Virus record (IMG/VR): IMGVR_UViG_2529293147_000015
Direction: 5' to 3' (one strand)
From: a virus
Lineage: Duplodnaviria > Heunggongvirae > Uroviricota > Caudoviricetes
Length of the DNA stretch: 49,846 nt
Part shown: positions 27,533 through 47,590 of the stretch, piece after piece
Layout: the number at the start of each line of letters is the position of its first letter
Position numbering within the stretch: position 1 is the stretch's first letter
Translations under genes and position numbers: made by a program
Notes under the pieces: model-generated
Databases searched by the model: none
What the model saw: the letters and a program-made list of their open reading frames with translations, nothing else
What the model was told of the DNA's origin: nothing

Positions 27533-27549
27533 ATAATGCAGATAATAGA

Positions 27550-27625: not shown

Positions 27626-27629
27626 GTGA

Positions 27630-27705
27630 TGGTGGCCCTTGCTGGATTTGAACCAGCGACCTGGCGATTATGAGTCGCTCGCTCTCACCACTGAGCTAAA
27701 GGGCC
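27630..27705 (-). tRNA. tRNA-Ile2 (anticodon CAT, ileX/ileZ-like)
   Basis: GGCCCTTTAGCTCAGTGGTGAGAGC...CTCATAA...GGTTCAAATCCAGCAAGGGCCACCA. Confidence 0.85.
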
Positions 27706-30332: not shown

Positions 30333-30684
30333 CTGTAATTTCGTAAATCTTCACGCCCAGCCGACCACCAGGTACAAGCTGACTGCGCACAATATTAATT
30401 TCATCAAACTGCTCGTCGTCGATAAGCAGTCCCGCATGTGTCAGTGCATCCAGTGGCGCTTTCAGGATATTGTCCAGGTCACGACGGCGCTTATCCGGTG
30501 GCTCCACAATAATCCTGATCGCCAGCCTTCCGGACAGATTTAATTTCAGTCGCTGCTGGCGAACAATGAGCGCCACATCACGGCGATAACGCTCACCGGC
30601 TTTTGATACAAAATATGTACTGCCACGACGTCGCCAGTAGGTGTTCACCGTTGGCGGGTAAGGCAAAACAAACTCTATACGCAT
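30313..30684 (-). CDS. rusA: Holliday junction resolvase RusA
   Basis: RRRDLDN catalytic motif, ~123 aa. Confidence 0.85.
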
Positions 30685-30696
30685 CAGTAACCTCTT

Positions 30697-31746
30697 TTAC
30701 CCGAGCACGCCGGTTGCAAAGGCGTGATCAAGAAAACGAAAAATTAAATCAATCTGGGAACCATGCTTTTCTTCAAATGCCAGCGGATCAGCATGAAGTT
30801 CATTGTGATGCTCCCGGCACAGCGGTAGCGTGAAAATATCGTGGGCTTTTGTCCCCATCCCTCCCTGACCGTGACCAATCAGGTGATGGGGATCGTCGGC
30901 TGGCTTACCACAACATGCACACGGCTGTGTCTTAACCCAGCGCGTGTACTTTTCGTTAACCCAGCGGCGACGTTTAGGTCGCTTCATGAAAGATTCAGGA
31001 GACTCCGGATCAACGGCAATGCTGACCACCGTCTTTTCCTGTGGTGGGTTCTGTTGCTGGTGGGCGTGAGGCGGTAGCACAATATTTTTTGTGCGCTGCT
31101 TCAGTATGCTGGTGGCTGTCTGCTCTCCCGGTATGATGTCGCTTTCACGGTACACAGAGCGGATTTTTTCCGCACGTAACCCCAGAGAACGACGTAATAC
31201 TGCCTCCGGAAGCGCGTCCGCCACCTGATTGCGGACCGCCCACCAGGATAATTCAGCCAGCGATAATTCCCGCTCCTGCGTGCCATTCACTGCATGGCGT
31301 ATGACGTCAATCATCCATGCTGACAGGTTTTGATGAGCAAGTTGCCCGAGTGATTCGGATGTCTGGTCACGCAGCTGGTTGTCGCAGTGCCAGCACAGCA
31401 CCATCGCGCCGGTACCGTAACGATGTATGACGGTTTCACTGTGATGGTAGTCACCATGAGGCCACTGGCAGGATTTAACATGACGCAGGAGCCAGTCAGA
31501 CAGTGCACCAGCGCCGCCGGCAGCACGAATCACCCGCTCATCGCTGAAAAATGGCAGCAGAGATTTGTCTTCCGCCAGCGGCTGGCGAACGGCAGGAACG
31601 ACCCCGGACGGCAGACCGCGCATGCTTTTTGGCTCCGGTTCAACCAGCACTCTGCCGTTATGGAATACCTGCATGGATTCACGACCTGGCTTAACGATAA
31701 CCACCCCAAGTTCCGGCACCAGAACAGGTCGAAGTAATACCCGCAC
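30697..31746 (-). CDS. NinG/DUF968-like phage protein with C-terminal Cys/His (HNH-like) motif
   Basis: C-terminal ...CACCGKPADDPHHLIGHGQGGMGTKAHDIFTLPLCREHHNELH; located in the nin region beside rusA. Confidence 0.55.
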   Translation of the reverse strand: MRVLLRPVLVPELGVVIVKPGRESMQVFHNGRVLVEPEPKSMRGLPSGVVPAVRQPLAEDKSLLPFFSDERVIRAAGGAGALSDWLLRHVKSCQWPHGDYHHSETVIHRYGTGAMVLCWHCDNQLRDQTSESLGQLAHQNLSAWMIDVIRHAVNGTQERELSLAELSWWAVRNQVADALPEAVLRRSLGLRAEKIRSVYRESDIIPGEQTATSILKQRTKNIVLPPHAHQQQNPPQEKTVVSIAVDPESPESFMKRPKRRRWVNEKYTRWVKTQPCACCGKPADDPHHLIGHGQGGMGTKAHDIFTLPLCREHHNELHADPLAFEEKHGSQIDLIFRFLDHAFATGVLG

Positions 31747-31747
31747 G

Positions 31748-32149
31748 TTACCTCCAGATGCGTTGCTGGAATGTGCGGGACGGACGCGGTGGGCGTTCGG
31801 AATAAGGGAGTCTGACGTAGATTATCCAGTGACGATAATCGAGGCTGAGGGCTTTCCTAAACTCATACCCACGTCTGCGGTAGTTATGAATCAGCCATTC
31901 GGCCTGTTCTTCAGTGCAGGGGTCGTGCTGATACCAGTCATATTTGAATGCGTGCGAACACCGCCCGTGCCTGCTGGCACGAACGGTATCAGAATTGTGT
32001 AATTTGGTCTTGTGCGCCATCTGTTTTCTCTGCTGGCGCAGCAGGTGCCAGTTGTTCAGGCTGGCATGTGGATTGTAAACCAGGATGCTCAGAAAAAACA
32101 AAACCCGCCGAAGCGGGTTAAGTGCGGGTGCATTGAGGATGCCTGACAC
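31748..32149 (-). CDS. Hypothetical nin-region protein (start uncertain)
   Basis: ORF with Cys/His-rich basic C-terminal part; 1-nt gap to the downstream gene. Confidence 0.4.
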   Translation of the reverse strand: MSGILNAPALNPLRRVLFFLSILVYNPHASLNNWHLLRQQRKQMAHKTKLHNSDTVRASRHGRCSHAFKYDWYQHDPCTEEQAEWLIHNYRRRGYEFRKALSLDYRHWIIYVRLPYSERPPRPSRTFQQRIWR

Positions 32150-32193
32150 ATCAGAGGTGGCGAGGGATTTCTCCCCCGCCAGGTCTCTTACTC

Positions 32194-32343
32194 CTCAGGT
32201 TCGTAAGCTGTGAAGACAGCGACCTCCGTCTGGCCGGTTCGGATTCGTACCTCGCAGAGGTCTTTCCTCGTTACCAGTGCCGTCACTATGACGGTTAAAC
32301 AGATGACGATCAGGGCGATTAACATCGCCTTTCGCTGCTTCAT
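32194..32343 (-). pseudogene. hok/gef-family type I toxin, C-terminus frameshifted by a 1-nt insertion
   Basis: Reads MKQRKAMLIALIVICLTVIVTALVTRKDLCEVRIRTGQTEV then RCLHSLRT*; removing one C near 32220 restores the canonical ...VAVFTAYEPEE* ending; small upstream ORF (32340..32399) whose stop overlaps the hok ATG. Confidence 0.6.
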
Positions 32344-33062
32344 AGCCCGCTTCTCCTTGACCTTTCGGTCCGTAAGAGGCTAATCTCTATGTGTCGCATA
32401 GATATGGCCTCAGATTAATGTTAAGCGTCTTGCAGGACGCGTAATGTTAACTGGGGCTTTTCTCTATCTGCCTTTGGTGTTCATGCCTGAGGCAGATAGC
32501 CTCAAGCACCCGCAGCAATTCTACTTAACTCCCGTCACCTCGCCAATATAAAATCAATCAGAAAGGCGATCCATAAGAACAACAGCAAGACAATAAATTG
32601 CCATTACAGCCGCAATAGCTAGCGCACATTTGAGAACCAGCACGACAACCTCCTGTATTGGACGTACACCAGTTCTGATAAATATGAGGCTGTCTCATCA
32701 TTGATTCAATATAACTATTGGGTATAGTTTCTGTGATTTTGTTCTGTAGAAATGGAACACAACAACCAGTCACCACCAGCACTTCTTTAAATACGCCAAG
32801 TCCGACGCAAGCTAACCTTCTAGTCCGCTTTGAGCGAGGAGCGGACCAAACCCGGCCAACTGACTCTTAAAGGGGCCGCAGGAATTTTTCGTCTGAACTT
32901 TCGAAGCTCCTCTCCCTGAAGACAGAAAACTTCTGTGTGCTGTGGGAATATTGAATCTTTGCATTAGATATAAATAATTTTATCCCGCCTGAAGTTTACA
33001 TTATTTTATTTATCTGTTTTTCTAAATCAGACTGCACTCCTTACTTAAATCAGGAGCCAGTC

Positions 33063-34262
33063 ATGCCATTTGTTATTTATGTGTTTACTATCAGTGCCTT
33101 TGCGCTCGGACTCGCGGAATTTGTCCCCATTGGGCTGACAGACGTTATGGCTCAGGGGTTGTGTGTGGGTGTGGAGCAGACCGGGGCAGCGGTTACAACC
33201 TATGCACTGGGGGCAACGTTCGCGGCACCCGTACTGTCTGCGCTGACAGCAAGCTGGAGCCGGAAAAATGTAATGCTTACAACTGCCGTTGTGTTTACTG
33301 CCGGTAGTCTGGCGGCCGCGTTTGCAGCCACATTACCTCAGCTCCTGTTAGCGCGGTTCATTGCTGGTCTGGGACACGGCCTGTTTCTGGCTGCGGCATC
33401 CAGTACCGCAGCTCGTCTTGCTGGACCGGGTAAAGCAGGCAGAGCGGTGGCTGTGGTATTTGGTGGCTTTACTCTGGCGATGGCAATCGGCGTACCGCTG
33501 AGTACATGGTTGGGGGGGGTGGTCTCATGGCGTCCAGTTCTCGGCGCTATTGCCGCTTTTGGCGCGTTCGGATTCCTTGGACTGTTGTTCGGTATGAAAG
33601 ATCCCGTACGCAGCGTGCCCGGTGAACATAGTGACTCAGCAATGCAGAATATCGGCATGCTGTTTAACCGTAAGTTGCTGGCCGGCGCGCTGGTTACGGT
33701 GCTGGCGTATGCAGGCTCGTTTACGGCTTACACCTTTATCGCACCTATTCTGACGCAGGTGACAGGGGTTACCGGAGCAACGGTGAGTCTGTTTATGCTG
33801 GTTTACGGTATTACAGCTGCGGTAGGTAATATTCTTGGTGGGAAACTTACCGACAGCATGGGGGTTAATCGTGCCAATATACTCATCATTAGCGGCATTG
33901 TTGTTGTCGTGCTTGGTATGTGGCTGCTGTCATCCTCACCGGTGAGCATGGGCATTCTGGTTGCGCTGCTGGGTATGGTGACATTTGCCGCAGTGCCGGC
34001 ACTGCAGGCCCGTCTGATTGGTGTCGCTGAGCAACATGCTCCTCATGCGCATGGTGTTGCTGCCGGCCTGAATATTGCGGGCTTCAACTCAGGTATAGCG
34101 CTGGGATCAGTACTGGGCAGCATTACTATAAGCCACGCCGGTATCGTGTATACCGGTATCAGCGGTGCGATTGTTTCTCTGCTCGGCCTGCTGTTGCTGC
34201 TTGCACAAATCCGTCGCAGCCACAGTCGTAAATTTCAACAGGTTAAAATCGTAGGCCAGTAA
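33063..34262 (+). CDS. MFS transporter (12-TM efflux type)
   Basis: 399-aa polytopic membrane protein with characteristic Gly-rich TM helices. Confidence 0.8.
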   Translation: MPFVIYVFTISAFALGLAEFVPIGLTDVMAQGLCVGVEQTGAAVTTYALGATFAAPVLSALTASWSRKNVMLTTAVVFTAGSLAAAFAATLPQLLLARFIAGLGHGLFLAAASSTAARLAGPGKAGRAVAVVFGGFTLAMAIGVPLSTWLGGVVSWRPVLGAIAAFGAFGFLGLLFGMKDPVRSVPGEHSDSAMQNIGMLFNRKLLAGALVTVLAYAGSFTAYTFIAPILTQVTGVTGATVSLFMLVYGITAAVGNILGGKLTDSMGVNRANILIISGIVVVVLGMWLLSSSPVSMGILVALLGMVTFAAVPALQARLIGVAEQHAPHAHGVAAGLNIAGFNSGIALGSVLGSITISHAGIVYTGISGAIVSLLGLLLLLAQIRRSHSRKFQQVKIVGQ

Positions 34263-34273
34263 AGGGAGGTTAT

Positions 34274-34966
34274 ATGCTTACCCGTGAAAATATGCTTAAT
34301 GGCACATTTGTCAGGGTGCATGAAGCGCTGCTCCCGGCGAATATGCTCTGGGACGCTGAAAAAATACGCGCATCAATGAACTCTACTCTGGAGGAGCGCC
34401 CGACGGGTGCTCCTTTCTGGATATTTGCCTACGGGTCATTGATGTGGAATCCCGTGCTGGCAATTGAAGAAATGCAACGGGCCCGTCTGAAAGGATGGCA
34501 GCGCAGTTTCTGCATTCGTTTGATATCCGGACGAGCGACTCCTGATGTCCCCGGCAGGATGTTATCGCTCGACGAAGGTGGAATTACCGAAGGGATTGCG
34601 TTCAGACTGCCGGAATCGACTCTTATTAATGAGCTGGAAATTGTCTGGACGCGCGAGATGATAACCGGTCTTTACCGTCCGGTCTGGGCAGACGTTTCGC
34701 TAGGAAACGGTGAGGAAATTCAGGCGCTGGCTTTCGTATCAGACAGACTGCATCCGCATTATGAACAGGACAATCTTACAGCGACCGTAGCATTGAGCAT
34801 CGCATCTGCCCGTGGAGACATTGGCACGAATGCAGATTATGTATGGAAACTGCAGGCCACTCTGGGTGCGTTGGGAATACGGGATGATTACGTGAGTGAA
34901 CTGGCCCTTGCTCTGCATGAGGCTCCCTGTAACGATAAACTTCATCAGCGAGGCGCTTCACTATGA
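34274..34966 (+). CDS. ChaC-like gamma-glutamylcyclotransferase family protein
   Basis: FWIFAYGSLMWNP motif and ...LWTREMITG... Confidence 0.75.
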   Translation: MLTRENMLNGTFVRVHEALLPANMLWDAEKIRASMNSTLEERPTGAPFWIFAYGSLMWNPVLAIEEMQRARLKGWQRSFCIRLISGRATPDVPGRMLSLDEGGITEGIAFRLPESTLINELEIVWTREMITGLYRPVWADVSLGNGEEIQALAFVSDRLHPHYEQDNLTATVALSIASARGDIGTNADYVWKLQATLGALGIRDDYVSELALALHEAPCNDKLHQRGASL

Positions 34967-35844
34967 GCCATCTGAGCCATCTGCGAACGTTTCTTGAGGC
35001 CTATCGCTCTGGCTCCTTTTCAAAGGCGGCAGAACTACTGGGCATCACTCAGCCCGCGGCGTCACAGCATATCCAGTCTCTTGAGACTCTGGTTGGTAAG
35101 CGTCTGTTTATCAGGCAGGCCAGAGGCGTGACGGCAACCGAAGCTGCGGATGAGCTTGCCCGCTCAGTTTCACCCTTCATTGATGGTCTGGAAGAAAAGC
35201 TGTCCTCTTTCCGGTCAGGCTCTGTACACGGGGGAACAATTAATCTGGCAGGACCGCCAGATTTTATTCATTCCCGGCTTGGGACAGTAATGGCTCCACT
35301 AATGAAGGAGGGGTATCGCTTACGCTTTCATACCGGCAATAAGCAACGTATTTATTCCCTTTTGCATGACGGGAGCGCCGATCTCGCTGTTACCGCATCT
35401 ATGCCTGATGACCGTCTGTACGGCTATGCACATCTACTGACTGAACGCATGCTCCTTGTTCATGCTCCCGCCATGTCAGAGATCATCGGATCAGAACCTG
35501 GTGCTGAAACGCTTGCCTCATTACCGCTGATTGCTTATGACGAAGAGTTGCCACTGATTAGAGCGCTCTGGGCCTCCATGTTTCAGAGAGCCCCTGAGAT
35601 GCAGGCTACATTCACCATTCCGGATTTACGTATTATCCGCGACTTGGTCTGTGACGGCCACGGGTGGACAGTGCTGCCGGATTATCACTGTGACAATGAC
35701 CTGAAAAGTGGTCGCCTGATTTCAGTGACCCCTGCAGACCTCGCTCCGACTAATCATCTTTATCTGGTCTGGAACAAAAGGACGGCTAATAACAGCCGAA
35801 CCGCCTATGTTCGGGATTACATTCTTAAAACGTTTCCGCGTTGA
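34963..35844 (+). CDS. LysR-family transcriptional regulator
   Basis: N-terminal HTH (LRTFLEAYRSGSFSKAAELLGITQPAASQHIQSLE) plus substrate-binding domain; start overlaps the ChaC-like stop. Confidence 0.85.
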   Translation: MSHLSHLRTFLEAYRSGSFSKAAELLGITQPAASQHIQSLETLVGKRLFIRQARGVTATEAADELARSVSPFIDGLEEKLSSFRSGSVHGGTINLAGPPDFIHSRLGTVMAPLMKEGYRLRFHTGNKQRIYSLLHDGSADLAVTASMPDDRLYGYAHLLTERMLLVHAPAMSEIIGSEPGAETLASLPLIAYDEELPLIRALWASMFQRAPEMQATFTIPDLRIIRDLVCDGHGWTVLPDYHCDNDLKSGRLISVTPADLAPTNHLYLVWNKRTANNSRTAYVRDYILKTFPR

Positions 35845-35888
35845 TGTTTGAAACGGATGATTGGCGATGCGTATCATAAGTTACGTAT

Positions 35889-35918
35889 GTCCGCTTCTGG
35901 CACAAAGCAGACGCCCAC
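35889..35918. repeat. Direct repeat copy 1 (GTCCGCTTCTGGCACAAAGCAGACGCCCAC)
   Basis: ~30-bp imperfect direct repeat of 39562..39591; the pair brackets the DUF2254 and BCCT genes. Confidence 0.5.
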
Positions 35919-35974
35919 TCTCACGCGAATGCTTTGCCCTTGACTTGCCAACAACCGTATCGCTTGCTCCGCAA

Positions 35975-37267
35975 CTATGGTTTTTTATTAGAACCTTCGC
36001 CACTAAATAAATTATAATAAATTGATTTTATTAGATATCTGTCAGAATCTATATGGTCAGCACGAGTAGCATGCTCTAATGTTTCAAATGCTAGGGTTTG
36101 TGCGGCTTCAGCAAAAATTCCAGGCCAACCCTTACTCAGCATCGACAGTCCTTTAAGTACCCTTATCTGAATTTCCCTCATACTGGCACCATCGCGCGCA
36201 ACAGGTGAGAAAAAGTCTTCAAGTAGATCGTTATTCTGAAGTGGTGCAACATGTACAGAAGGATATTTCACTTCTATTTCATCAGATTTATTCTGCGCGT
36301 AAGCGGAAAGTATACGTACACCTCTGCCAATGACATCAATGGCGGTTCCAGGATCGTTCACTGCGGGGGAAAGGGCTCGGCAGGCTATTTCGGCCATGAC
36401 GCTAAGACAAAATCGGGGGTCCTGAGCAAATGAACGTACATCCGAGACAATAATCGTCTCAAGTAAATCGGTGCTGATTGATGACTCCTGGCCCTGACTC
36501 AGGTACAAAACTGGCGTGGACGGATGTATGAAACTGCCCGGCTGCGCCACGAGGTATACATGACGGGGATCATTGGTCAGCAGCTTGCTGAGTTTCACCA
36601 TATCAACATATTCAACATAGCCAATCTTTTTCGGATAAACTGCAACCGTTCCTTTCGGCTGTTCATTGTTCTCAAGCCAAGGATATCCGCCGAGACAGGG
36701 ATTTCTTGCTCTCGCAATAAATGTTTCGATGGCCGCCTGTTCTACTTTTGCCGTTGTCTCACCAACCCTCCCCAGAGAGGTCAAATGCTGTATCCAGCGA
36801 AGCAATGTGATGAGGATTAAGGCAATGACAACCAGTGTTACAATGAATAAAATGACTCTCCCCCTTTCTCCATAAGCTCCCATATTGAGGGCAATAATCC
36901 CTACCAGACTGAAGAGAAAAGAACCGATGAAGGTGGCCAGTACATTTTGTGTGGTGACGTCTTCAACAACTAAACGAGTAGCTCTGGGAGTCACATTAGT
37001 AGTGGCTGAACCGTAGGCTGTGACCATGATGCTCAGCGAAAATGTGGTCACTGCCAGCATACTCGATGCCAGTATGTTCAGAATGTTATCGACTGCTTCC
37101 GCACCAACCTTCACGGAAACCGACTCAGGTATCATTGATTTAAAAAGAATTGATAAAAGGGCCGTTATTATTGCGACAATTGCGAATAACGTTGCCCTGA
37201 ACCATAGTTTTTTAAATGTCTGCTTCAGCATCCATTTCCAGCGTGAAATCATTCTGCATTCCCTCAT
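35975..37267 (-). CDS. DUF2254-type integral membrane protein
   Basis: 430-aa ORF with N-terminal TM bundle and soluble C-terminal domain. Confidence 0.6.
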   Translation of the reverse strand: MRECRMISRWKWMLKQTFKKLWFRATLFAIVAIITALLSILFKSMIPESVSVKVGAEAVDNILNILASSMLAVTTFSLSIMVTAYGSATTNVTPRATRLVVEDVTTQNVLATFIGSFLFSLVGIIALNMGAYGERGRVILFIVTLVVIALILITLLRWIQHLTSLGRVGETTAKVEQAAIETFIARARNPCLGGYPWLENNEQPKGTVAVYPKKIGYVEYVDMVKLSKLLTNDPRHVYLVAQPGSFIHPSTPVLYLSQGQESSISTDLLETIIVSDVRSFAQDPRFCLSVMAEIACRALSPAVNDPGTAIDVIGRGVRILSAYAQNKSDEIEVKYPSVHVAPLQNNDLLEDFFSPVARDGASMREIQIRVLKGLSMLSKGWPGIFAEAAQTLAFETLEHATRADHIDSDRYLIKSIYYNLFSGEGSNKKP

Positions 37268-37315
37268 ATTGCAGCCGGGATAAATAAATGCCGCCTCTGT
37301 GGCGGCATGTTGCTG

Positions 37316-39319
37316 TTAACGAACCAGATGCAGGAAGTGCAGGTGTTTTTCGTACTGGTCCAGTATGTCATTAATCAGCTGTTCCTGATTCCAGCCCATT
37401 ACATCATAATTTTGGCCGCCCTCTTTGAGATAGACTTCAGCGCGATAATATCGATGTTGTTCACTCTGCTGCTCATCATTATCCAGCGCAGCGAGCGCGA
37501 AGGTCGGTGAGTTATACCCGCGAAGCCTCACTTCATATATATAATTCAGCTCGTTGCCCAAATCGACTTCAAGGCGAATACGATCCTCGGCGGCGTCACT
37601 GATGTGGCTTATCGTTCCCTGCTTGTTAAGTTCCTCCTGAACCAGCGTCATGGCGGGTTGGATAATGTCGTCCATAAAACGTTTCACAAGAGAGCGCTTC
37701 GGCAAATACGCGATATTGCGTAACCTTCTCTGCCAGGGAATTGGGTTACGTGCAGCCGTAGGAGCAATAGTCGCCATGCTAAGGCTTTCACGCTTGGTCA
37801 AATCCCGACGCAGGGCTTTTAACAGTCCGTATATGGATATTAATAAGATAACTGAGAAGGGCAATGCACTCGCTATCGTTACGGTTTGCAACGCACTCAG
37901 CCCCCCTGCGATCAGCAGGGCAATAGCAACAACGCCCATGAGCGATGCCCAGAAAATTCGCTGCCAGACGGGCGTGTTTGCCACCCCACCTGATGCCAGA
38001 GTATCCACAACCATTGCCCCCGAATCAGCAGACGTTACAAAGAAGACGATGACCATCGCCATTGCAATGAATGACAGCACGGAAGAGAACGGGAAATGCT
38101 CCAGGAAATTAAACAGGGCAAGCGCAACATCCTGCTGAACGGTATTGGCGAGGTCAGTGGCGCCCTGGTTCATGATGAGATAGATGGCGCTGTTTCCAAA
38201 CACCGTCATCCACATGAGCGTAAAGCCGGCGGGAACAAACAACACGCCAGTCACGAACTCACGAATTGTCCTGCCGCGGGAAACGCGTGCAATGAACATA
38301 CCTACAAACGGCGACCATGAAAGCCACCATCCCCAGTATAATAATGTCCAGCCCCCCAGCCAGTTGCTCGACTTGGGTTCATACGCGTAAAGGTTGAACG
38401 TTTTACTCACCAGTTCCGACAGATAACCACCCGTATTTTCCACAAATGACTTCAGCAGAAGCACAGTGGGACCCAGGCACAAGACCAGCGCCAGGAGCAA
38501 CACCGCCAGGCCCAGATTAAGCTCAGACAGGATGCGTATTCCCTTGTCCAGGCCGGACACCACCGAAATCGTCGCTAACCCCGTGATGACCACGATCAAA
38601 ATGACCTGTACCGTTTCATTGATGGGCACGCCGAAAAGATGGTTCAAACCGGCATTCACCTGCAATACACCGTAACCCAGTGATGTTGCAACGCCAAAGA
38701 CAGTGCCTATCACGGCGAAGATATCAACCGCGTGGCCTATAGGCCCGTAAATGCGATCGCCGATAATGGGATAGAGCGCAGAACGCAGCGTTAAAGGCAG
38801 ACCGTGACGGTAACTGAAAAAGGCCAGAATCAGCGCCACGATGGCATAAATTGCCCATGCGTGCAGACCCCAGTGGAAGAACGTCAGGCGCATGGCTTCC
38901 TTCGCTGCCGCAACGGTCTCTGGAGTGCCGACAGGTGGCGAAAGATAATGCATCACAGGTTCGGCAACGCCAAAGAACATCAGGCCGATCCCCATCCCTG
39001 CCGAAAAAAGCATCGCGAACCAGGAGTGGTAGCTGAAATCAGGCTGCGCATGGTCTGGGCCCAGCTTTATATCACCGTAACGTGAGAGTCCAAGGAACGT
39101 GACGCTCAGTAAAATCAGGGCCACAGCAAGTATGTAGAACCAGCTGGCATTCGTGAAGATTTGTTGCTGAAGTAGTTTAAAATTTTTGTCGGCGACATCC
39201 GGGAATACGGCGGCAAAGGCGACAAGAAGGAAAATTAGCAAAGCAGATGTAAAGAATACCGCTTTGTTAATCTGGCTTGTAGACTTCTTTGGGGTTGTAT
39301 CATTTTCACTCATAATCAT
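37316..39319 (-). CDS. BCCT-family (betaine/carnitine/choline) transporter
   Basis: 667 aa; BCCT signature around WTLLYWGWWLSWSPFVGMFIARVSRGRTIREF. Confidence 0.85.
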   Translation of the reverse strand: MIMSENDTTPKKSTSQINKAVFFTSALLIFLLVAFAAVFPDVADKNFKLLQQQIFTNASWFYILAVALILLSVTFLGLSRYGDIKLGPDHAQPDFSYHSWFAMLFSAGMGIGLMFFGVAEPVMHYLSPPVGTPETVAAAKEAMRLTFFHWGLHAWAIYAIVALILAFFSYRHGLPLTLRSALYPIIGDRIYGPIGHAVDIFAVIGTVFGVATSLGYGVLQVNAGLNHLFGVPINETVQVILIVVITGLATISVVSGLDKGIRILSELNLGLAVLLLALVLCLGPTVLLLKSFVENTGGYLSELVSKTFNLYAYEPKSSNWLGGWTLLYWGWWLSWSPFVGMFIARVSRGRTIREFVTGVLFVPAGFTLMWMTVFGNSAIYLIMNQGATDLANTVQQDVALALFNFLEHFPFSSVLSFIAMAMVIVFFVTSADSGAMVVDTLASGGVANTPVWQRIFWASLMGVVAIALLIAGGLSALQTVTIASALPFSVILLISIYGLLKALRRDLTKRESLSMATIAPTAARNPIPWQRRLRNIAYLPKRSLVKRFMDDIIQPAMTLVQEELNKQGTISHISDAAEDRIRLEVDLGNELNYIYEVRLRGYNSPTFALAALDNDEQQSEQHRYYRAEVYLKEGGQNYDVMGWNQEQLINDILDQYEKHLHFLHLVR

Positions 39320-39561
39320 TTATTCCATTAATTAAATCCGCACTGGATAGAAGGTACTACCTCTCACAGAGTAGCAAAGTTCAACTGGCTATGCGGGGTT
39401 AATCGGAATGCATGGTGGAATGAGTGCCGATACAAATCATCCTATATTCTAAGGAGTTTTAAGTTACTCAGCCTGCCAATTACTGGGGCATTTAATTTGT
39501 ATGATCTGTATCAAAGCTGGGATATAAGTTAAGTGAAGTATATTAGGCACGAATTACCAGC

Positions 39562-39591
39562 GTCTGCTCTTGGCACAAAGCGGACAACCAC
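39562..39591. repeat. Direct repeat copy 2 (GTCTGCTCTTGGCACAAAGCGGACAACCAC)
   Basis: Matches 35889..35918 at ~24 of 30 positions. Confidence 0.5.
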
Positions 39592-39653
39592 GCTAGCTCT
39601 ACCCTGTGCCACAAAATGTCAATTTGCATCTGAACTAATGCACTTTAATCTCG

Positions 39654-40076
39654 TCACTTCAATAAATACCGAACATCCCCCTGATAAAACGACAATATGC
39701 GCTGCATAACTTCGCTCTTCCGGCACTCGCGACAGATTATGTTTAGGCGACTGTCGTAGCGACGTATTTCTCCGTCAGGTAATGACCAGATAAGGTCCGG
39801 ATCAACCACAACCGGTTTCTTCAGCTTTGCCCTCGATAATTTTTTGCGGGCATTTTGCCAGTCTTTACGAGCCTGTTCAGACGGGAATAACCCGTAGCCA
39901 GAATTGTATACATCGCCACTGGCAACCAGCTCTCTGGCCAGAACGCTCATCAGATATCTTGTTGCCCCAGTTTTAGCTTCCAGTTGTCGTAACGTCTCGC
40001 GCCCACTCTGGCGTACGAGTTCAAGAACCTGCCCTTTAATTTTTTCCCGCTCTTCTTGTGTAAAAACTTTTGCCAC
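39654..40076 (-). CDS. Hypothetical phage early protein, possibly DNA-binding
   Basis: 140-aa ORF downstream of the replication initiator. Confidence 0.5.
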   Translation of the reverse strand: MAKVFTQEEREKIKGQVLELVRQSGRETLRQLEAKTGATRYLMSVLARELVASGDVYNSGYGLFPSEQARKDWQNARKKLSRAKLKKPVVVDPDLIWSLPDGEIRRYDSRLNIICRECRKSEVMQRILSFYQGDVRYLLK

Positions 40077-40116
40077 AAGCCCTCCTGAAAATTACCTCAT
40101 GACCAGAAATTAACAC

Positions 40117-41193
40117 TTACCCCCTGAAGCCCGGCGGAATTTCGTTATCCGGTTCAGAAATATGATTCACACAACGCTGGTTGTTCGTGCCGCTTACCGG
40201 GAGCAACCAGGGGTTCTCAAAATTCCGGTCCGGTCCAAAAAACGTCGTCGCTCGCTGAACAAATTCCGTTCCCGTTTTCCCGGTAGCCGCCAAGTATCTT
40301 GCGTAACGCCTCACGCCATCCAGCATGGCCTCTGGTGGCACCCCCTCGCGTAATCTGGCCTTCCAGGCACTGAAAGCGGATTTCTTCGGGTTTGCCCCAG
40401 CACGCAACGGGTACTCCCGCCAGACCTGTTCGAACACATCCGGATAATCCACTCGTCCCACAGACTGCCCGGTGTTTTCCGGGACTACCCGATCGGCTTC
40501 CCGCTGAATGGCGGAATCGGCTTCAGGGTGCTGCAGTTGGTGTGATTGCTCCGCCCTTGCGGTCATCACCTGCTGCACAGCGCCCGAATCGGCTTTCAGC
40601 GCATACGCTGAATCGGCTTCCGGTGTCGTGCCTGCTGGCTGACCAAGATTGACGGTCTGAACATCCCCTGCCTGGTTCGTGGCGTTTTTTACGCCATGGA
40701 CCATAGTGTTTTGATCTTCTTGATCTGTATCTTTATCTGTATCTTTATCTGTCGTGACTCGTCGTGACATGTGCGTGACATTTCGTGACGCGCCGTGACA
40801 ATCGCCATTTTGTTCCCGCTTTCTTTCCCTCTCTCGCTGCGCCCTCTTGCGCTCTGCAGGAGATTTTGCGGTTTGCGAAATATTGCCGTTGTCCTCTTTA
40901 AGCACCTGGCGTTTTTCCCATCCAGTGATTAAATCACCATCAAGTACCCGCCCCTGCATCGTCTGCAAAATTGAATCAATTACCTCTTCTGTCACGTCGA
41001 GCGCACTTGCCAAATCTTCTGTCGTGACATCAATGTGACCTCGCGTGACATTTCGTGACGCGCTCACCAGGAGGTGGATATACACTGCCATCACTGTTGC
41101 AATTGGCTGCCCTGACACCCTGGCAATTGTTCGCCACTTAGGGTCATTTGGCATGTCATGCCATAATCTGAGCCAGGCGTTAGCCATACTCAC
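40117..41193 (-). CDS. Replication initiation protein (YdaU/DUF1376-like) with internal iterons
   Basis: 358-aa ORF in the O-gene position after Cro-like and YdaT-like genes; internal CGTGAC iterons. Confidence 0.55.
   Translation of the reverse strand: MSMANAWLRLWHDMPNDPKWRTIARVSGQPIATVMAVYIHLLVSASRNVTRGHIDVTTEDLASALDVTEEVIDSILQTMQGRVLDGDLITGWEKRQVLKEDNGNISQTAKSPAERKRAQRERERKREQNGDCHGASRNVTHMSRRVTTDKDTDKDTDQEDQNTMVHGVKNATNQAGDVQTVNLGQPAGTTPEADSAYALKADSGAVQQVMTARAEQSHQLQHPEADSAIQREADRVVPENTGQSVGRVDYPDVFEQVWREYPLRAGANPKKSAFSAWKARLREGVPPEAMLDGVRRYARYLAATGKTGTEFVQRATTFFGPDRNFENPWLLPVSGTNNQRCVNHISEPDNEIPPGFRG
40721..40806. repeat. Putative replication origin iterons, cluster 1
   Basis: Five CGTGAC copies at ~10-11 bp spacing (40753, 40763, 40774, 40785, 40795) preceded by tandem TATCTTTATCTG. 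Confidence 0.55.
41018..41064. repeat. Putative replication origin iterons, cluster 2
   Basis: CGTGAC repeated at 41023, 41044, 41055; CGTGACATTTCGTGACGCGC shared with cluster 1. Confidence 0.5.
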
Positions 41194-41258
41194 CTCTTTT
41201 GATACCGAATCTTTTTACTCACAAATTGCCGGAAGTGATCCGGTATGAATATTGCGAG

Positions 41259-41684
41259 TCAATGCACAGCCACAATATTTCCTGCAGGGCCACCACGATT
41301 CATCTGGTTGAAACCAGCGATCGCCACTGCGACAAAATCATCAGCGTCTCTCACCAGCCGTTCCCGCGTCTCCACCAGCTCCCGAAACCAGGCTGAACTG
41401 TGGCTGCGCATTCGGGCCACCAGCAGAGGCGGCATTGCTTTTTCGATAGCTGGTAACAACGCCTGAATTTTTTTAACCGCATCAGGGGTGTCTTTCTCCA
41501 CCCAGCGGAAAATTTTCTGAGTATTGCGAGCCAGGGCTTCCGGATGGCTGTCGTTATACAGTTCCGGGAACGTCATTCCCAGCTCGAAATACGCTTTGGT
41601 AATTTTCGCAGCCGGAACTTTTTCACCGTCCGGATGCGCCCAGGCATTCATCGCCATGCGGATGTGTTCATGCTTGATTTTCAT
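41259..41684 (-). CDS. YdaT-like protein (CII-like regulator position)
   Basis: 141-aa ORF MKIKHEHI... immediately downstream of the Cro-like gene. Confidence 0.5.
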   Translation of the reverse strand: MKIKHEHIRMAMNAWAHPDGEKVPAAKITKAYFELGMTFPELYNDSHPEALARNTQKIFRWVEKDTPDAVKKIQALLPAIEKAMPPLLVARMRSHSSAWFRELVETRERLVRDADDFVAVAIAGFNQMNRGGPAGNIVAVH

Positions 41685-41983
41685 GAATCAACTCCATCAG
41701 ATAAGCATGCACTACAATCACCTTCAGCATGAACTACATGTGTTTGCCCCAAACGAATGCCGCTCGCATACTCAGGCCAAATAAGCTCCCAATCATGGGG
41801 TCGTAGCTCCGCCCTACTTACTTGGCCTTCCGTCGCAGATTCGATCATAAGGGCGCGTGTTGGAGATATAGCTGCTCGTCCAGACGCCATTTGCGATAAG
41901 TAAGATGGCGATACACCAAGTCTGGCTGCGAATTTCTTAGCATCACCAACCCTCAATGATTTAATAAACTCTTTTAATGTCAT
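41681..41983 (-). CDS. Cro-like HTH regulator (YdaS-like)
   Basis: HTH segment AKKFAARLGVSPSYLSQMASGR; divergent from the repressor gene. Confidence 0.6.
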   Translation of the reverse strand: MTLKEFIKSLRVGDAKKFAARLGVSPSYLSQMASGRAAISPTRALMIESATEGQVSRAELRPHDWELIWPEYASGIRLGQTHVVHAEGDCSACLSDGVDS

Positions 41984-43013: not shown

Positions 43014-43066
43014 GCGGTTTAGTTTTTACTTGACTTAAGTTTAATGTTTATTAAACTAAAAATATC
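43014..43066. promoter_or_regulatory. OL-like operator region
   Basis: Inverted copy of the OR sequence (TTAATAAAC, TTAAGTCAAG shared) upstream of the plus-strand early-left genes. Confidence 0.45.
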
Positions 43067-43155
43067 AACCCACCCCGCCCCACATAATGCAGGGCAATAC
43101 TTCGAGTTACCAGGCAGTGGTCAGGGGTTAAGTAGCCAGCCCGAGGCGTAAGAAC

Positions 43156-43392
43156 ATGACGGCAGGGTTCAACTTTAATAACTATGCAGCAGGTTTTTGT
43201 TCCGCTACCCCGGCGTTAAGGGGAAATGAGGTCAGCATGGATACTATCGATCTTGGCAACAGCGAATCTCTGGTATGTGGCGTGTTCCCCAACCAGGACG
43301 GTACGTTCACCGCGATGACGTATACCAAAAGCAAAACGTTTAAAACCGAAAATGGTGCCCGTCGCTGGCTGGAAAGAAACTCAGGTGAGTGA
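43156..43392 (+). CDS. Hypothetical early-left protein
   Basis: 78-aa ORF, first gene after OL. Confidence 0.35.
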   Translation: MTAGFNFNNYAAGFCSATPALRGNEVSMDTIDLGNSESLVCGVFPNQDGTFTAMTYTKSKTFKTENGARRWLERNSGE

Positions 43393-43393
43393 T

Positions 43394-43522
43394 ATGGATT
43401 TCGACACAATCATGGAAAAGGCTTACGAAGAATACTTCGAAGGTCTTGCCGAAGGCGAAGAAGCTCTCAGCTTCAACGAATTTAAACAGGCGCTTTCCAG
43501 TTCGGCAAAATCTAACGGCTGA
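43394..43522 (+). CDS. Small acidic protein (42 aa)
   Basis: ATG 2 nt after the upstream stop; MDFDTIMEKAYEEYFEGLAEGEEALSFNEFKQALSSSAKSNG; below ORF-track cutoff. Confidence 0.3.
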   Translation: MDFDTIMEKAYEEYFEGLAEGEEALSFNEFKQALSSSAKSNG

Positions 43523-43551
43523 TAAGCGAAACAGCACCGCGAGGAATCAGT

Positions 43552-43767
43552 ATGCAGAAACGAGAACCCGTCATCATCGCGCCAGACTATACCGATGATG
43601 AACTTTATGAGTGGATGCACCAGAAAATTAATGCAGCGCAGGATCTGAAATGGGCCAATGAAGCTAGGGCTAAGCAGGCTGAAAATCTGTCCGCTCTGGA
43701 GCAGGATATCACCAATCTGGAAAAAGCAGCAGCATTAAGCATTGCCAGAATGATTACAGGTTGGTAA
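43552..43767 (+). CDS. Hypothetical early-left protein
   Basis: 71-aa ORF, coiled-coil-like C-terminus. Confidence 0.4.
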   Translation: MQKREPVIIAPDYTDDELYEWMHQKINAAQDLKWANEARAKQAENLSALEQDITNLEKAAALSIARMITGW

Positions 43768-43777
43768 TAAAGGAGTT

Positions 43778-43829
43778 CTCCACGGGTGAGGTGGAGTGCG
43801 TGTGCCGGACACGGGTGAGCATCCGGCAC
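43778..43829 (+). ncRNA. Tandem stem-loops sharing CACGGGTGAG (candidate structured RNA or protein-binding element)
   Basis: Hairpin 1 CTCCAC-gggtgag-GTGGAG (43778..43796); hairpin 2 GTGCCGGA-cacgggtgagca-TCCGGCAC (43802..43829). Confidence 0.3.
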
Positions 43830-44306
43830 TGACAGTTTACTGAAAGGATATTTCCCTGAAAAGTCAGACCATAACGCGAAAGCGCACGGCGAGGTAGCTG
43901 GTTCATAGATAGCCTGTCGTTAAATTTTCGTCGACCGTGCGCTTCCGGTTGTGGCAATCCGCGAAATGGCGCGGCGGTAAGTATGGCGGGGTTATTCCTT
44001 CCCCCGTTGAGGACACCGGGTTGTCAGGTTGACCATACGCTTAAGTGACAACCCCGCTGCAACGCCCTCTGTTATCAATTTTCTGGTGACGTTTGGCGGT
44101 ATCAGTTTTACTCCGTGACTGCTCTGCCGCCCTTTTTAAAGTGAATTTTGTGATGTGGTGAATGCGGCTGAGCGCACGCGGAACAGTTAAAACCAAAAAC
44201 AGTGTTATGGGTGGATTCTCTGTATCCGGCGTTAATTGTTAACTGGTTAACGTCACCTGGAGGCACCAGGCACCGCATCACAAAATTCATTGTTGAGGAC
44301 GCGATA

Positions 44307-44495
44307 ATGAAAACGTTATTACCAAACGTTAATACGTCTGAAGGTTGTTTTGAAATTGGTGTCACTATCAGTAACCCAGTATTTACTGAAGATGCCATTA
44401 ACAAGAGAAAACAAGAAGGGGAGCTATTAAATAAAATATGCATTGTTTCAATGCTGGCTCGTTTACGTCTGATGCCAAAAGGATGTGCACAATGA
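44307..44495 (+). CDS. Small hypothetical protein
   Basis: 62-aa ORF from MKTLLPNVNTSEG..., RBS GAGGA. Confidence 0.35.
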   Translation: MKTLLPNVNTSEGCFEIGVTISNPVFTEDAINKRKQEGELLNKICIVSMLARLRLMPKGCAQ

Positions 44496-44683
44496 ATTCA
44501 GCATTTGCGCTTGTTCTGACAGTTTATCTTGTTTCCGGAGAGCCAGTTGATATTGCAGTCAGTGTTCACAGGACAATGCAGGAGTGTATGACTGCAGCAA
44601 CCGAACAGAAAATTCCCGGTAACTGTTACCCGGTCGATAAAGTTATTCACCAGGATAATAACGAAATCCCGGCAGGTCTTTAA
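44492..44683 (+). CDS. Small secreted or membrane protein
   Basis: 63-aa ORF MNSAFALVLTVYLVSG... with signal-peptide-like N-terminus; ATGA overlap with the upstream gene. Confidence 0.4.
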   Translation: MNSAFALVLTVYLVSGEPVDIAVSVHRTMQECMTAATEQKIPGNCYPVDKVIHQDNNEIPAGL

Positions 44684-44775
44684 AACAGTTCCGTAATAAA
44701 TATCCGGTTTCATTCTTATATGCCAGCAATGGCAGGGATTTATTCACCCTTAAATCTGTAATGAGGTAAAACAAA

Positions 44776-47247: not shown

Positions 47248-47319
47248 TGTTCAACTGTCGCCGGTTGTGACTGGTATTCTGCAACCGGCGCTCGTCTAAT
47301 GTAAGAGATAAAGAAATCG

Positions 47320-47571
47320 ATGAGCGAAGTAATCATGATTGTCTCTCCCGGCAAATGGGTATCCGAAGAGCAGTTAATTGCGCTGAAAGGAATAAAAAAA
47401 GGTACGTTAAAAAAGGCCCGGGAAAAATCGTTTATGGAAGGAAGGGAATATAAGCATGTCGCTCATGACGGTATGCCATGGGATAACAGCCCATGCTTTT
47501 ACAACCTGGAAGAAATTGATCGCTGGATTGAGCGCCAGGCATCAGCAAGACCAAGACGTCATCTTACTTGA
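47320..47571 (+). CDS. xis: Excisionase (Xis)
   Basis: Small basic ORF immediately upstream of int. Confidence 0.65.
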   Translation: MSEVIMIVSPGKWVSEEQLIALKGIKKGTLKKAREKSFMEGREYKHVAHDGMPWDNSPCFYNLEEIDRWIERQASARPRRHLT

Positions 47572-47590
47572 CTAAAAGCCACACTAACTA

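Follow-up and report, generated by a model that had tools for sequence, protein, structure and literature searches.

Introduction

The hotspots of SXT/R391-type ICEs combine nucleotide-precise borders with unrelated contents (PMC2791158), a precision that has been without explanation since 2009. Hotspots of P2 and P4 elements are likewise rich in defence genes, and a 2026 survey left the choice open, for them, between transposition, homologous recombination and illegitimate recombination (PMC13586616). Both sets of studies described hotspots without a site or a dedicated recombinase, and it is an open question how cargo and defence genes move among prophages, satellites, ICEs and plasmids that have no common flanking homology. 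Two site-specific systems are close to the material considered here. In the XerC-like/dif-like system of Tn6022 the recombinase gene is followed directly by its own site, as was shown experimentally (PMC11014353), and the sfx sites of the R64 shufflon have the spacer GTGCCAA together with one conserved and one variable arm (PMC4176322).

Here we describe a window of 49,846 nucleotides (the whole stretch of viral DNA that was analysed), which is a Qin-like lambdoid prophage of E. coli. Within it, short repeats surround cargo genes, and we argue that these repeats probably serve as recombination sites in a cassette system that resembles integrons or dif modules and has a putative catalyst of its own. 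With a short recombinase acting at a compact, recognisable site, the mobility question could be tested directly.

Results

Three repeat copies and the cargo hotspot

A sequence-only reading of the window had reported a 30-bp direct repeat with copies at 35889-35918 (GTCCGCTTCTGGCACAAAGCAGACGCCCAC, copy A) and 39562-39591 (GTCTGCTCTTGGCACAAAGCGGACAACCAC, copy B). These positions proved right. The copies are identical at 24 of 30 positions (79% across 33 nt), each contains the reported inverted repeat GTCYGCT...AGCRGAC, and they enclose the two minus-strand genes, DUF2254 and BCCT, that had been named and on which open reading frames and Pfam agree. While the idea that the copies are cassette ends found support, the picture of a two-copy arrangement was not, as a third, inverted copy (C, GTCCGCTCCTCGCTCAAAGCGGAC) had been missed; its 6-nt centre differs from that of A and B. 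When a degenerate 24-nt pattern was scanned against 100 dinucleotide-preserving shuffles, three matches were obtained in the window compared with 0.00 expected. A looser scan (up to 7 mismatches) and half-site scans detected no extra copies in the window. Site C is oriented opposite to site B and belongs to an inverted pair of 37 nt (Table 1).

Table 1. Coordinates of the sites, cassettes and neighbouring genes in the window
Feature	Position	Strand	Description
hokD toxin gene (51 aa)	32188..32343	-	Left backbone, conserved; ORF, annotated hokD in matching record
sok antisense RNA	32341-32511		Rfam, 104.8 bits
Site C	32823..32846	-	Left boundary of cargo region; minus strand GTCCGCTCC-TCGCTC-AAAGCGGAC; plus-strand core GAGCGA
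Cassette 1	32847..35888	+	MFS, ChaC-like and LysR genes; ORFs, Pfam, annotation
MFS transporter	33063-34262	+	Cassette 1
ChaC-like gamma-glutamylcyclotransferase	34274-34966	+	Cassette 1
LysR regulator	34963-35844	+	Cassette 1
Site A	35889..35912	+	GTCCGCTTC-TGGCAC-AAAGCAGAC; internal junction of cassettes 1 and 2
Cassette 2	35913..39561	-	DUF2254 and BCCT genes with BCCT upstream region
DUF2254 membrane protein	35975-37267	-	Pfam DUF2254
BCCT transporter	37316-39319	-	Pfam BCCT
Region upstream of BCCT gene	39320-39561	-	Part of cassette 2
Site B	39562..39585	+	GTCTGCTCT-TGGCAC-AAAGCGGAC; right boundary of cargo region
DUF977 gene	39654..40076	-	Right backbone, conserved; prophage replication module; ORF, Pfam, annotation

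Sites C (32823) and B (39562) delimit a cargo hotspot that reaches from hokD to the DUF977 gene, with 3673 bp between sites A and B. In other prophages the hotspot holds at least 18 alternative gene sets, mostly defence candidates, and 38 loci with the same anchors displayed 18 cargo sizes ranging from 984 to 6715 bp. Across these loci the backbone-facing half of each site was fixed and the cargo-facing arm followed the cargo. In the window, the arm AAAGCGGAC and flank tagaaggttagct of site C form part of the backbone, as do the core, right arm and flank aaccacgctagctctaccct of site B. At site A the left arm changes with the left neighbour, and the core, right arm and flank gcccactctcacgcg move with DUF2254. 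Copy A, rightly taken by the sequence-only reading as one end of the DUF2254-BCCT unit, at the same time closes off another cassette, MFS-ChaC-LysR, on its right-hand side. Reading the repeats as cassette sites explains the presence of transporter and metabolic genes in a slot usually filled by defence. Literature searches found no description of the hokD-DUF977 hotspot of Qin/Rac-like lambdoid prophages.

All copies are intergenic. A and B each lie 57-92 nt past a minus-strand stop codon, A sits between the convergent LysR and DUF2254 genes, and site C is more stably folded than shuffled sequence (z = -2.3). This placement would suit a regulatory or transcript-level element at gene 3′ ends (terminator, insulator, mRNA-stabilising hairpin or regulator site) that selection has put at the borders, and the sequence-only reading had named a shared regulatory or RNA element as one option. 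We regard it as highly improbable. None of the three copies is terminator-like (post-stem sequences gcccac, aaccac and tagaag, with no T-tract), on neither strand do the A and B hairpins exceed shuffled sequence in stability (z = +0.56 to -1.17), and site C stands upstream of genes on either side. In addition, some functional-looking junction copies have lost one whole arm, and an element of this kind leaves unexplained the empty and occupied pair described below. The suggested comparison with Rfam, run at gathering thresholds, returned only sok, DicF, IS009 and two tRNAs, all away from the repeats.

Specific candidates of this type were also considered. An intrinsic terminator or RNA hairpin was rejected on the missing T-tract and the ordinary folding energies of A and B. 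A sigma-54 promoter at TGGCAC was rejected by eye because the spacing to the -12 GC element is wrong, and a nut/boxA reading of TGCTCTT in copy B was rejected because this arm varies among copies and the strand is wrong for the early operon.

Relatedness switches within the sites

Comparison of related loci shows a family of sites of 24-28 bp, inside which relatedness between genomes breaks. Each site consists of 9-nt inverted arms (11 nt with flanking AT in many copies; consensus GTCCGCTnn / nnAGCGGAC) around an invariant 6-nt core, of which there are two kinds, TGGCAC and GAGCGA. In change-point mapping, relatedness switched within the 24-bp site in 263 of 289 pairs at TGGCAC sites and in 328 of 353 pairs at TCGCTC sites (140 sites analysed for the latter), that is in 91-93% of comparisons and mostly at the core (149 and 232 pairs, respectively), although the pairs are phylogenetically non-independent. 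Approximately 30% of breakpoints fell in the arms; moreover, the core is the sole invariant stretch, so recombination by short homology would tend to map there too. The two halves of one copy were inherited separately, each with its own neighbour, and half-sites with a single recognisable arm still served as junctions.

The edges of homology around the window's cassettes agree with individual sites: a copy of cassette 2 found elsewhere starts at 35893, the right backbone starts at 39562, and the hokD-side backbone homology with other prophages stops at 32837-32846. The DUF2254-BCCT unit was at least 99.8% identical next to four unrelated left cassettes, with homology beginning at site A, and cassette 1 was never observed without cassette 2 in E. 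coli. A relative of cassette 2 (~94% identical) with its own motif occurs at a non-phage chromosomal locus, where it is interrupted by IS600 139 bp short of the position of site B.

The sequence-only reading had proposed a search for loci with a single uninterrupted repeat. For DUF2254-BCCT the outcome was negative, with 0 matches at a coverage of at least 80% when three synthetic queries were run against 5426 complete E. coli genomes; the unit was apparently inserted once and long ago. At a sister locus the outcome was positive: E. coli Nissle carries one GTCCGCTCCTGGCACAGAGCGGAC, while strain WP3-W18-CRE-03 carries two identical direct copies around a 4811-bp insert, and the flanks of the pair match on both sides. 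Genome alignments show an empty and an occupied form of this locus, and show that cargo between sites is interchangeable. The breakpoints within the repeats, the four neighbours of the DUF2254-BCCT unit and this pair support the earlier suggestion of cassette ends or a recombination scar.

The consequences of exchanging site halves were evaluated in a half-swap test. The stems of A and B contain mismatches (5-7 of 9 pairs; -2.0/-4.2 kcal/mol in the window) compared with the reciprocal hybrids, which are better palindromes (6-8 of 9 pairs; -6.2/-7.5 kcal/mol, likewise for the window). A single base pair, position 4 with 21, is essentially responsible for this contrast, and the mixed forms also equal G.T wobble pairs on one strand. 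The reconstructed empty site is identical to a real B site present in other prophages.

A small tyrosine recombinase gene is linked to the sites

Locus comparisons across taxa show that a gene encoding a protein of 200-211 aa is linked to the sites. By its catalytic residues and predicted fold the protein belongs to the tyrosine recombinase superfamily. H150, R153, H176 and Y185 (catalytic H-x-x-R, H and Y) are invariant, the box-I Arg is missing only from a single distant member, and Pfam Phage_integrase matched with 63.9 bits. Foldseek matched the predicted structure, for which one of five AlphaFold models was confident, to XerA, Cre, XerH, IntI and lambda Int with a probability of 1.00. The protein is essentially a catalytic domain only, and in the model the N-terminal core-binding domain of all solved relatives appears to be absent. 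Searches of NCBIfam and PDB sequences for a named family gave only far-below-cutoff Xer, invertase and integron matches, and literature searches (sequence strings; tyrosine-recombinase, cassette and hotspot topics) found no earlier description of the motif or the protein.

On its 3′ side the gene is followed by the stop codon, a hairpin, GTGCCA and a variable arm, and then by ~24 different partner DNAs; its 5′ side comprises an arm, TCGCTC and a conserved leader. Relatives at 50-60% identity have the same layout, with GTGCCA or CGGCCA as the 3′ core and GGGTCA as the 5′ core. In E. coli (strain Nissle has the copy WP_001305361.1), Proteus, ICEs, and marine and soil bacteria, down to ~50% protein identity, the gene had sites of both core types at its ends, with the exception of loci L285-289, where the 3′ site is missing, and of the Providencia and Idiomarina copies, where the 5′ site is missing. 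In 912 E. coli genomes, at several loci, the homology of the ~700-bp recombinase unit extends no further than its two sites; 17% of complete E. coli genomes carry the recombinase. Recombinase and sites are also present in a traF-proximal ICE hotspot and in P4-like elements; on inspection, identity of the SXT gene s073 with the recombinase was not established. Loci selected solely by the recombinase gene contained 1.0 motif per 10 kb, whereas none occurred in the 41.8 kb of window sequence beyond the hotspot or in shuffles.

The window itself encodes no member of this recombinase family, and the enzyme would have to act there in trans; the gene was not found in most of the hokD-DUF977 loci compared. 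A tblastn search detected no recombinase near 120 alpha-, beta- and gammaproteobacterial loci obtained by pattern scan, so that in those taxa the link rests on separate recombinase-centred loci.

The absence of the gene from most hotspots would be expected if the repeats were a conserved linker, a short patch of homology at module borders through which general or phage homologous recombination (RecA, RecET, Red/Bet-Exo) swaps cargo with no dedicated enzyme, the recombinase gene being an ordinary cassette. In line with such a linker, these prophages encode exonuclease/RecT-type functions, the WP3-W18-CRE-03 insert is flanked by identical 24-bp copies, and part of the breakpoints lie in the arms rather than the core; bet/exo recombination has also been proposed for the precisely bordered SXT/R391 hotspots (PMC2791158). 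We nevertheless consider it unlikely, since it leaves unexplained why the geometry of a tyrosine recombinase site (arms and a 6-nt spacer) is kept from E. coli to soil bacteria, why two core types stay separate, and why the recombinase gene retains one end of each type amid changing surroundings. The use of one-armed half-sites as junctions likewise argues against a linker.

Distribution of the motif

Copies of the motif turn up at numerous unrelated loci in numerous taxa, from E. coli to soil bacteria. In E. coli the copy number is low (median 1, maximum 6 detectable places per genome). High density was confined to high-GC alpha- and betaproteobacterial contigs, where the family reaches 5 copies per 10 kb, with as many as 14 in 8 kb, arranged as tandem BIME-like arrays; in Enterobacterales two subtypes alternate in orientation 12-18 nt apart, and at one locus (L195) an IS110-family transposase adjoins a B site with a replaced cargo-side arm. 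These three observations would fit a REP/BIME-like or MITE-like self-transposing palindrome, or an IS target, found at borders because intergenic gaps tolerate it. Such an origin is highly improbable given that E. coli does not hold tens to hundreds of copies per genome, that copies lie exactly on homology breakpoints and are not just intergenic, and that each half of a copy follows its own neighbour in inheritance. Furthermore, inspection of annotated loci revealed no Y1/RAYT transposase, and the GTAG head that REPs typically carry is missing.

The sequence-only reading had counted both a dispersed motif and the lack of an empty site against its own proposal. The motif is indeed dispersed and the window's cassette has no empty site in the 5426 E. 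coli genomes, yet neither point refutes the cassette idea, because dispersal is what a family of recombination sites should show and this insertion looks like one old event.

Discussion

We propose a model in which the three repeats would be core-type recombination sites with 9-11-nt inverted arms and a 6-nt crossover core. Most likely, the DNA that brought in DUF2254-BCCT was circular or carried a site in some other form, and we infer a circle. Crossover in the TGGCAC core of a resident site would have left a direct repeat of two hybrid sites, A and B, after which site A may have acted as the boundary for swapping cassettes on its left. The proposed enzyme is the widespread tyrosine recombinase of ~200 residues, whose own gene is a cassette with one site per core type; we infer that this recombinase catalyses the exchanges.

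More tentatively, the recombinase, its 24-28-bp sites and at least two non-interchangeable cores may constitute an undescribed, widespread system that builds and exchanges arrays of cargo and anti-phage defence genes in lambdoid prophages, P4-like satellites, SXT/R391-type ICEs, plasmids and genomic islands of Proteobacteria, with a site family amplified to REP-like numbers in soil Alpha- and Betaproteobacteria. It would then be the missing mechanism for nucleotide-precise hotspot borders and for how defence systems pass from one mobile element to another, unrelated one; such a system could explain how both defence and cargo genes travel. If this is true, the 24-bp site would be a marker for annotating cassette borders and finding defence genes, and genome engineering might gain from the system a small new recombinase whose sites are heterospecific.

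The arrangement resembles an integron in that imperfect palindromes delimit cassette arrays, the cargo is rich in defence genes, and insertion of a circular cassette would yield a duplicated, hybrid site; where the tyrosine recombinase gene is present, the asymmetric site that it adjoins may be a primary one. However, the recombinase has ~200 aa compared with ~320-340 aa for IntI, and with NCBIfam integron integrase models it reached 17.2-17.5 bits where 265-435 are required. The sites are 24-28 bp long with a 6-nt core and no GTTRRRY, whereas attC sites span 57-141 bp with R″/L″/L′/R′ boxes and GTTRRRY. There are two core types, and cassettes are often multi-gene, with genes in both orientations. 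Where the recombinase occurs, many different partners directly follow its 3′ GTGCCA, as they would at a primary insertion site; most arrays, the window included, have no recombinase gene.

With Xer/dif, pdif and Tn6022 modules the sites share inverted arms of ~9-11 nt around a 6-nt centre, and modules lying between alternately oriented sites. The protein is not an XerC/D orthologue (44.7 bits with the XerC model, cutoff 335, and 27.5 bits with the XerD model, cutoff 330) and, as modelled, is missing the N-terminal core-binding domain. The arm sequences are unlike the E. coli dif consensus, and no sign of FtsK or host Xer involvement was seen in this analysis.

The shufflon shares the hexamer GTGCCA, the reverse complement of TGGCAC, which may be coincidence, and the recombinase gene's own 3′ site also has one conserved and one variable arm. 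The 12-nt sfx right arm TCCGGTACGTGG is unrelated to AAAGCGGAC. Rci, a larger protein of ~380 aa, is known only to carry out inversions within one gene, while the genome comparisons reported here indicate that unrelated DNA was inserted and replaced. FimB and FimE are similar in size (~200 aa), in consisting of a catalytic domain with almost no N-terminal domain, and in acting at short inverted repeats; models of tyrosine-type DNA invertases gave 27.4 bits (cutoff 222) and 19.2 bits (cutoff 221). In the FimB/FimE system one promoter segment is flipped, whereas the sites described here join unrelated segments.

Inverted copies of a palindromic site bracket the prophage cargo

The window is from E. 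coli, and its Qin-like lambdoid prophage is integrated beside rspB/ynfA. Its early-right genes lie on the minus strand in the order cro-like regulator, YdaT, replication protein, DUF977, cargo, hokD/sok, DUF968, RusA and Q antiterminator, and Rfam models for DicF, sok and IS009 matched in the window. A region of the window was 100% identical to E. coli strain AR_452 (NZ_CP030331), with differences outside 30343-41695 and 43062-48938; the prophage is thus a mosaic of at least two backbones.

The sequence-only reading had placed two copies of a direct repeat around the DUF2254 and BCCT transporter genes. Both copies (sites A and B) were found where it put them, flanking these two ORFs, with 24 of 30 positions identical (79% over 33 nt). 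Its two-copy picture proved incomplete, since a degenerate 24-nt pattern matched three times in the window (0.00 expected from shuffles) and the third match, site C, had been overlooked. Site C has the same arms as A and B around a different 6-nt centre; looser scans of the window revealed no further copies or half-copies. Sites C and B form an inverted pair (37 nt) enclosing the entire cargo region, and site A is internal to it, between the convergent LysR and DUF2254 genes.

Coordinates of features in the window and of two related loci in other genomes
Feature	Position	Strand	Sequence, accession or source
IS009 RNA	44-242	-	Rfam
Two prophage-borne tRNA genes	27459-27705	-	Rfam
Site C	32823-32846	-	GTCCGCTCCTCGCTCAAAGCGGAC; degenerate-pattern match
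MFS transporter, ChaC-like gamma-glutamylcyclotransferase, LysR regulator	33063-35844	+
Site A, left copy of the sequence-only reading	35889-35918	+	GTCCGCTTCTGGCACAAAGCAGACGCCCAC
DUF2254 membrane protein	35975-37267	-	Pfam
BCCT transporter	37316-39319	-	Pfam
Site B, right copy of the sequence-only reading	39562-39591	+	GTCTGCTCTTGGCACAAAGCGGACAACCAC
DicF RNA	44081-44132	+	Rfam
K-12 MG1655 Qin copy of the motif (hit H77), under annotated ydfV	2049274-2049301		NZ_CP009685
74-bp piece of recombinase cassette, Klebsiella plasmid	218005-218078		NZ_CP035384

Homology to other genomes breaks at all three sites. DUF2254-BCCT copies elsewhere in E. coli (~94% identity) start at position 35893, within site A; backbone homology starts at 39562, the first base of site B; and the hokD-side backbone shared with hundreds of other prophages stops matching at 32837-32846, where site C has its outer edge. 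The entire cargo, 32847-39561, is therefore bracketed by the inverted sites C and B.

In other Qin/Rac-like prophages the hokD-DUF977 interval holds quite different genes. Cargo of 18 different sizes, from 984 to 6715 bp, was present at 38 fetched loci with both backbone anchors, and none of the 38 was empty. Across the lambdoid prophages compared (window 32847-39561; loci L003-L008 and L129-L248 from other genomes) at least 18 alternative gene sets occupy the interval, a cargo hotspot on which no paper was found. Six of ten sampled cargo proteins matched PADLOC defence or defence-candidate families (PDC-S33, PDC-S15, PDC-S06, ThsA-like SIR2, PDC-S39 and a CARF-associated deaminase-like protein); as hotspot cargo is mostly defence-like, the transporter and metabolic cargo of the window is atypical for the slot. 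The backbone-facing half of the site was constant in every locus (core, then AAAGCGGAC, then flank). The cargo-facing arm varied along with the cargo, and a few copies lacked that arm altogether.

At locus L195 (2891-bp cargo class), an IS110-family transposase gene adjoins the B site at cargo position 2936, and the cargo-side arm is replaced (GACTATATT directly before TGGCAC). This element may be an insertion sequence targeting the site; some IS110/IS1111 elements target integron attC sites or REPs.

Homology switches at an invariant core

Over all copies, the site consists of 9-nt inverted arms (GTCCGCTnn and nnAGCGGAC, often 11 nt via flanking AT) with six invariant nucleotides between them, which read TGGCAC in one type and TCGCTC (reverse complement GAGCGA) in the other. 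Likelihood change-point analysis was applied to unique sites sharing one flank and not the other. With the TGGCAC core (158 unique sites, 289 pairs) the switch fell inside the 24-bp site in 263 pairs (91%) and in an interval bracketing exactly the core in 149; with the TCGCTC core (140 unique sites, 353 pairs) the respective numbers were 328 (93%) and, within the core ±2, 232, the pairs in both sets being phylogenetically non-independent. As read from sequence, the sites are built, and behave, like tyrosine-recombinase core sites. Because the core is the sole invariant stretch, switches produced by short-homology recombination would be expected to fall there as well. That cargo is exchanged through general or phage homologous recombination, with the motif as a conserved linker, is considered unlikely.

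The motif is widespread but low-copy in E. coli

Judged from its information content, the 24-nt pattern should match by chance ~2 times in 596 Gb. It occurred at at least 120 loci in one-genome-per-species contigs and at least 120 in viral contigs, the matches listed including Pantoea, Serratia, Citrobacter, Klebsiella, Mixta, Rahnella, Pseudomonas, Nitrosomonadaceae and many soil Alphaproteobacteria. Enterobacterales often carry the two subtypes 12-18 nt apart in inverted orientation. High-GC contigs contain the motif family in BIME-like arrays, as a REP/MITE-like element might, at a density of 5 copies per 10 kb that rises to a maximum of 14 per 8 kb. In E. coli the motif is detectable at a median of 1 place per genome and at no more than 6, the K-12 copy being in Qin, and such an element is an improbable explanation. 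Likewise very improbable is a transcript-level or regulatory element, as which the repeats had also been proposed. The suggested Rfam search gave no match at the repeats, where no T-tract was present either, and the A and B hairpins exceeded shuffles in stability on neither strand (z = +0.56 to -1.17); that of site C alone did so (z = -2.3). On the Rfam result, the missing T-tract and the low copy number, the RNA element, terminator or REP reading was rejected for E. coli.

High-GC alpha- and betaproteobacterial contigs (L010-L128) contain tandem arrays of atGTCCGCTATTGGCACAAAGCGGACat, about 20 nt, then atGTCCGCTTTCGGGG and so on, often directly after stop codons. In a 2192-bp cargo, an ORF starting MVVRFVPIADI continues through the motif without a break; the palindrome may have given rise to artefactual calls of some short genes or N-termini at such junctions.

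The DUF2254-BCCT unit carries the marks of a probable insertion

The spacing from A-type to B-type site in the DUF2254-BCCT unit was always 3673 bp. The unit lies beside four unrelated left cassettes (in the window and loci L231, L185 and L157), among which it is at least 99.8% identical, with homology beginning at the first bases of site A. The stem contains a C.A mismatch in site A and a T.G mismatch in site B. Half-swapping A and B yields two better palindromes (-2.0/-4.2 to -6.2/-7.5 kcal/mol for hairpins of the window DNA), with a gain in the same direction in all four arrangements, and prophages with a 1442-bp cargo have the reconstructed empty site, GTCCGCTTCTGGCACAAAGCGGAC, as their actual B site. 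Integration of a site-bearing circle through a central crossover would produce this pattern, a reading that hinges mainly on one base-pair position. A and B would then be hybrid sites left by insertion of the unit into the TGGCAC site of the hotspot. The predicted junction of the 3673-bp circle is ...cgaattaccagcGTCTGCTCT-TGGCAC-AAAGCAGACgcccactct..., and loss of the unit is predicted to leave ...acgtatGTCCGCTTC-TGGCAC-AAAGCGGACaaccacg....

An empty site for this unit, for which a search had been proposed, was not matched at ≥80% coverage in 5426 complete E. coli genomes by synthetic queries built for three of the left cassettes; the insertion thus looks like one older event, with left cassettes later exchanged at C and A. 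The empty and occupied configurations were present at a sister locus. E. coli Nissle has a single GTCCGCTCCTGGCACAGAGCGGAC flanked by a hypothetical gene and a gene for a YeeP-like GTPase. Strain WP3-W18-CRE-03 has both of these flanks, each bearing an identical copy of this 24-mer, on either side of a 4811-bp insert carrying a reverse-transcriptase-like gene. The unit also occurs on the chromosome at a non-phage locus (acuR, motif, DUF2254-BCCT, IS600), where it has its own diverged motif, GTTTGCTTTTGGCACAAAGCATAC, again at a junction with alternative partners.

A candidate enzyme, a short tyrosine recombinase, is bounded by the same sites

Hotspot cargoes at L133 and L240 share a ~709-bp segment with motif-like edges, encoding a 202-aa protein whose sole Pfam domain is Phage_integrase; no NCBIfam model scores it near cutoff. 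More than 8000 close homologues (77-95% identical) occur in Enterobacterales, Morganellaceae, Idiomarina, Cycloclasticus and Pseudoalteromonas; the E. coli Nissle copy of the recombinase is WP_001305361.1. The family forms 569 clusters (50% identity, E ≤ 1e-30), mostly of 200-211 aa, with invariant catalytic H-x-x-R, H and Y residues. The predicted structure (pLDDT 80, but only 1 of 5 models confident) matches catalytic domains from XerA, Tn1549 Int, Cre, XerH, IntI and lambda Int, with 15-20% sequence identity; these proteins are all larger and have an extra N-terminal domain that the recombinase lacks.

In unrelated contexts, 85 copies of the gene share the same 3′ end: stop, GC-rich hairpin, GTGCCA (the reverse complement of TGGCAC), NNAGCRGAC-type arm, then unrelated DNA, with ~24 different partners after an identical cassette end. 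On the 5′ side are an arm, TCGCTC and a conserved leader. These contexts include prophages, P4-like elements, plasmids, a site next to gcvP in Idiomarina, the traF-proximal hotspot of an SXT/R391-type ICE and Proteus islands with TIR, SMC and SIR2 genes. In relatives at 55-70% identity the hairpin differs and is followed by CGGCCA and a GAAGCGGAT-type arm, and high-GC soil relatives (~50% identity) have GTGCCA and an arm downstream and ATGTCCGCTTT-GGGTCA upstream. Of 5426 E. coli genomes, 912 contain the ~700-bp unit, which lies at several positions and has its two sites as the limits of homology. Loci chosen solely by the recombinase gene contained 1.0 motif per 10 kb, versus 0 in shuffles and 0 in the 41.8 kb of non-hotspot sequence in the window.

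Taken together, these results point to a model in which the repeats probably act as recombination sites in a cassette system resembling integrons or dif modules, with the short recombinase working in trans. No protein of this recombinase family is encoded in the window. The enzyme would catalyse directional exchange through a circular intermediate.

Exceptions to the two-site rule are loci L285-L289, L277-L284 and L263. One marine clade keeps the hairpin and has TTTTGTACGT in place of GTGCCA; in the copies from Providencia and Idiomarina no upstream site is recognisable. Relatives in high-GC metagenomes are mostly on contigs <2.5 kb, as expected of multi-copy elements. More than 500 large Klebsiella plasmids carry a 74-bp piece of the cassette leader and 5′ site without the gene (~96% identity). 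In an SXT/R391-like ICE (L269-L275) the recombinase lies between arsenic-resistance genes and traF, its 3′ site being followed directly, depending on the contig, by mer genes, a class-1-like integron integrase with dfr/qac, or traF. In the window, the backbone right of site B (39586-39611) reads AACCACGCTAGCTCTA-CCCTGTGCCA; here GGACAACCA is similar to GGGACAACCA, at the inner 5′ end of the recombinase cassette, and CCCTGTGCCA to CAGCCCTGTGCCA, at the 3′ end of that cassette. The stretch may be what remains of a recombinase cassette that was deleted.

Comparison with known systems

Precise borders of SXT/R391 ICE hotspots were reported in 2009 without a mechanism (PMC2791158), and the exchange mechanism at P2/P4 hotspots was still called unresolved in a 2026 study (PMC13586616). 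No description of the motif or protein was found in the literature covered, which excludes most subscription journals, and an earlier description is possible. Among described systems the closest are integrons, Xer/dif modules (Tn6022 among them, whose XerC-like gene has its own downstream dif-like site; PMC11014353), the R64 shufflon, and FimB/E invertases, which the recombinase resembles in size. The present system fails tested defining features of each. The R64 shufflon has the sfx spacer GTGCCAA and an unconserved left arm (PMC4176322); this spacer contains the hexamer GTGCCA of the present core, and a variable arm is likewise common to both.
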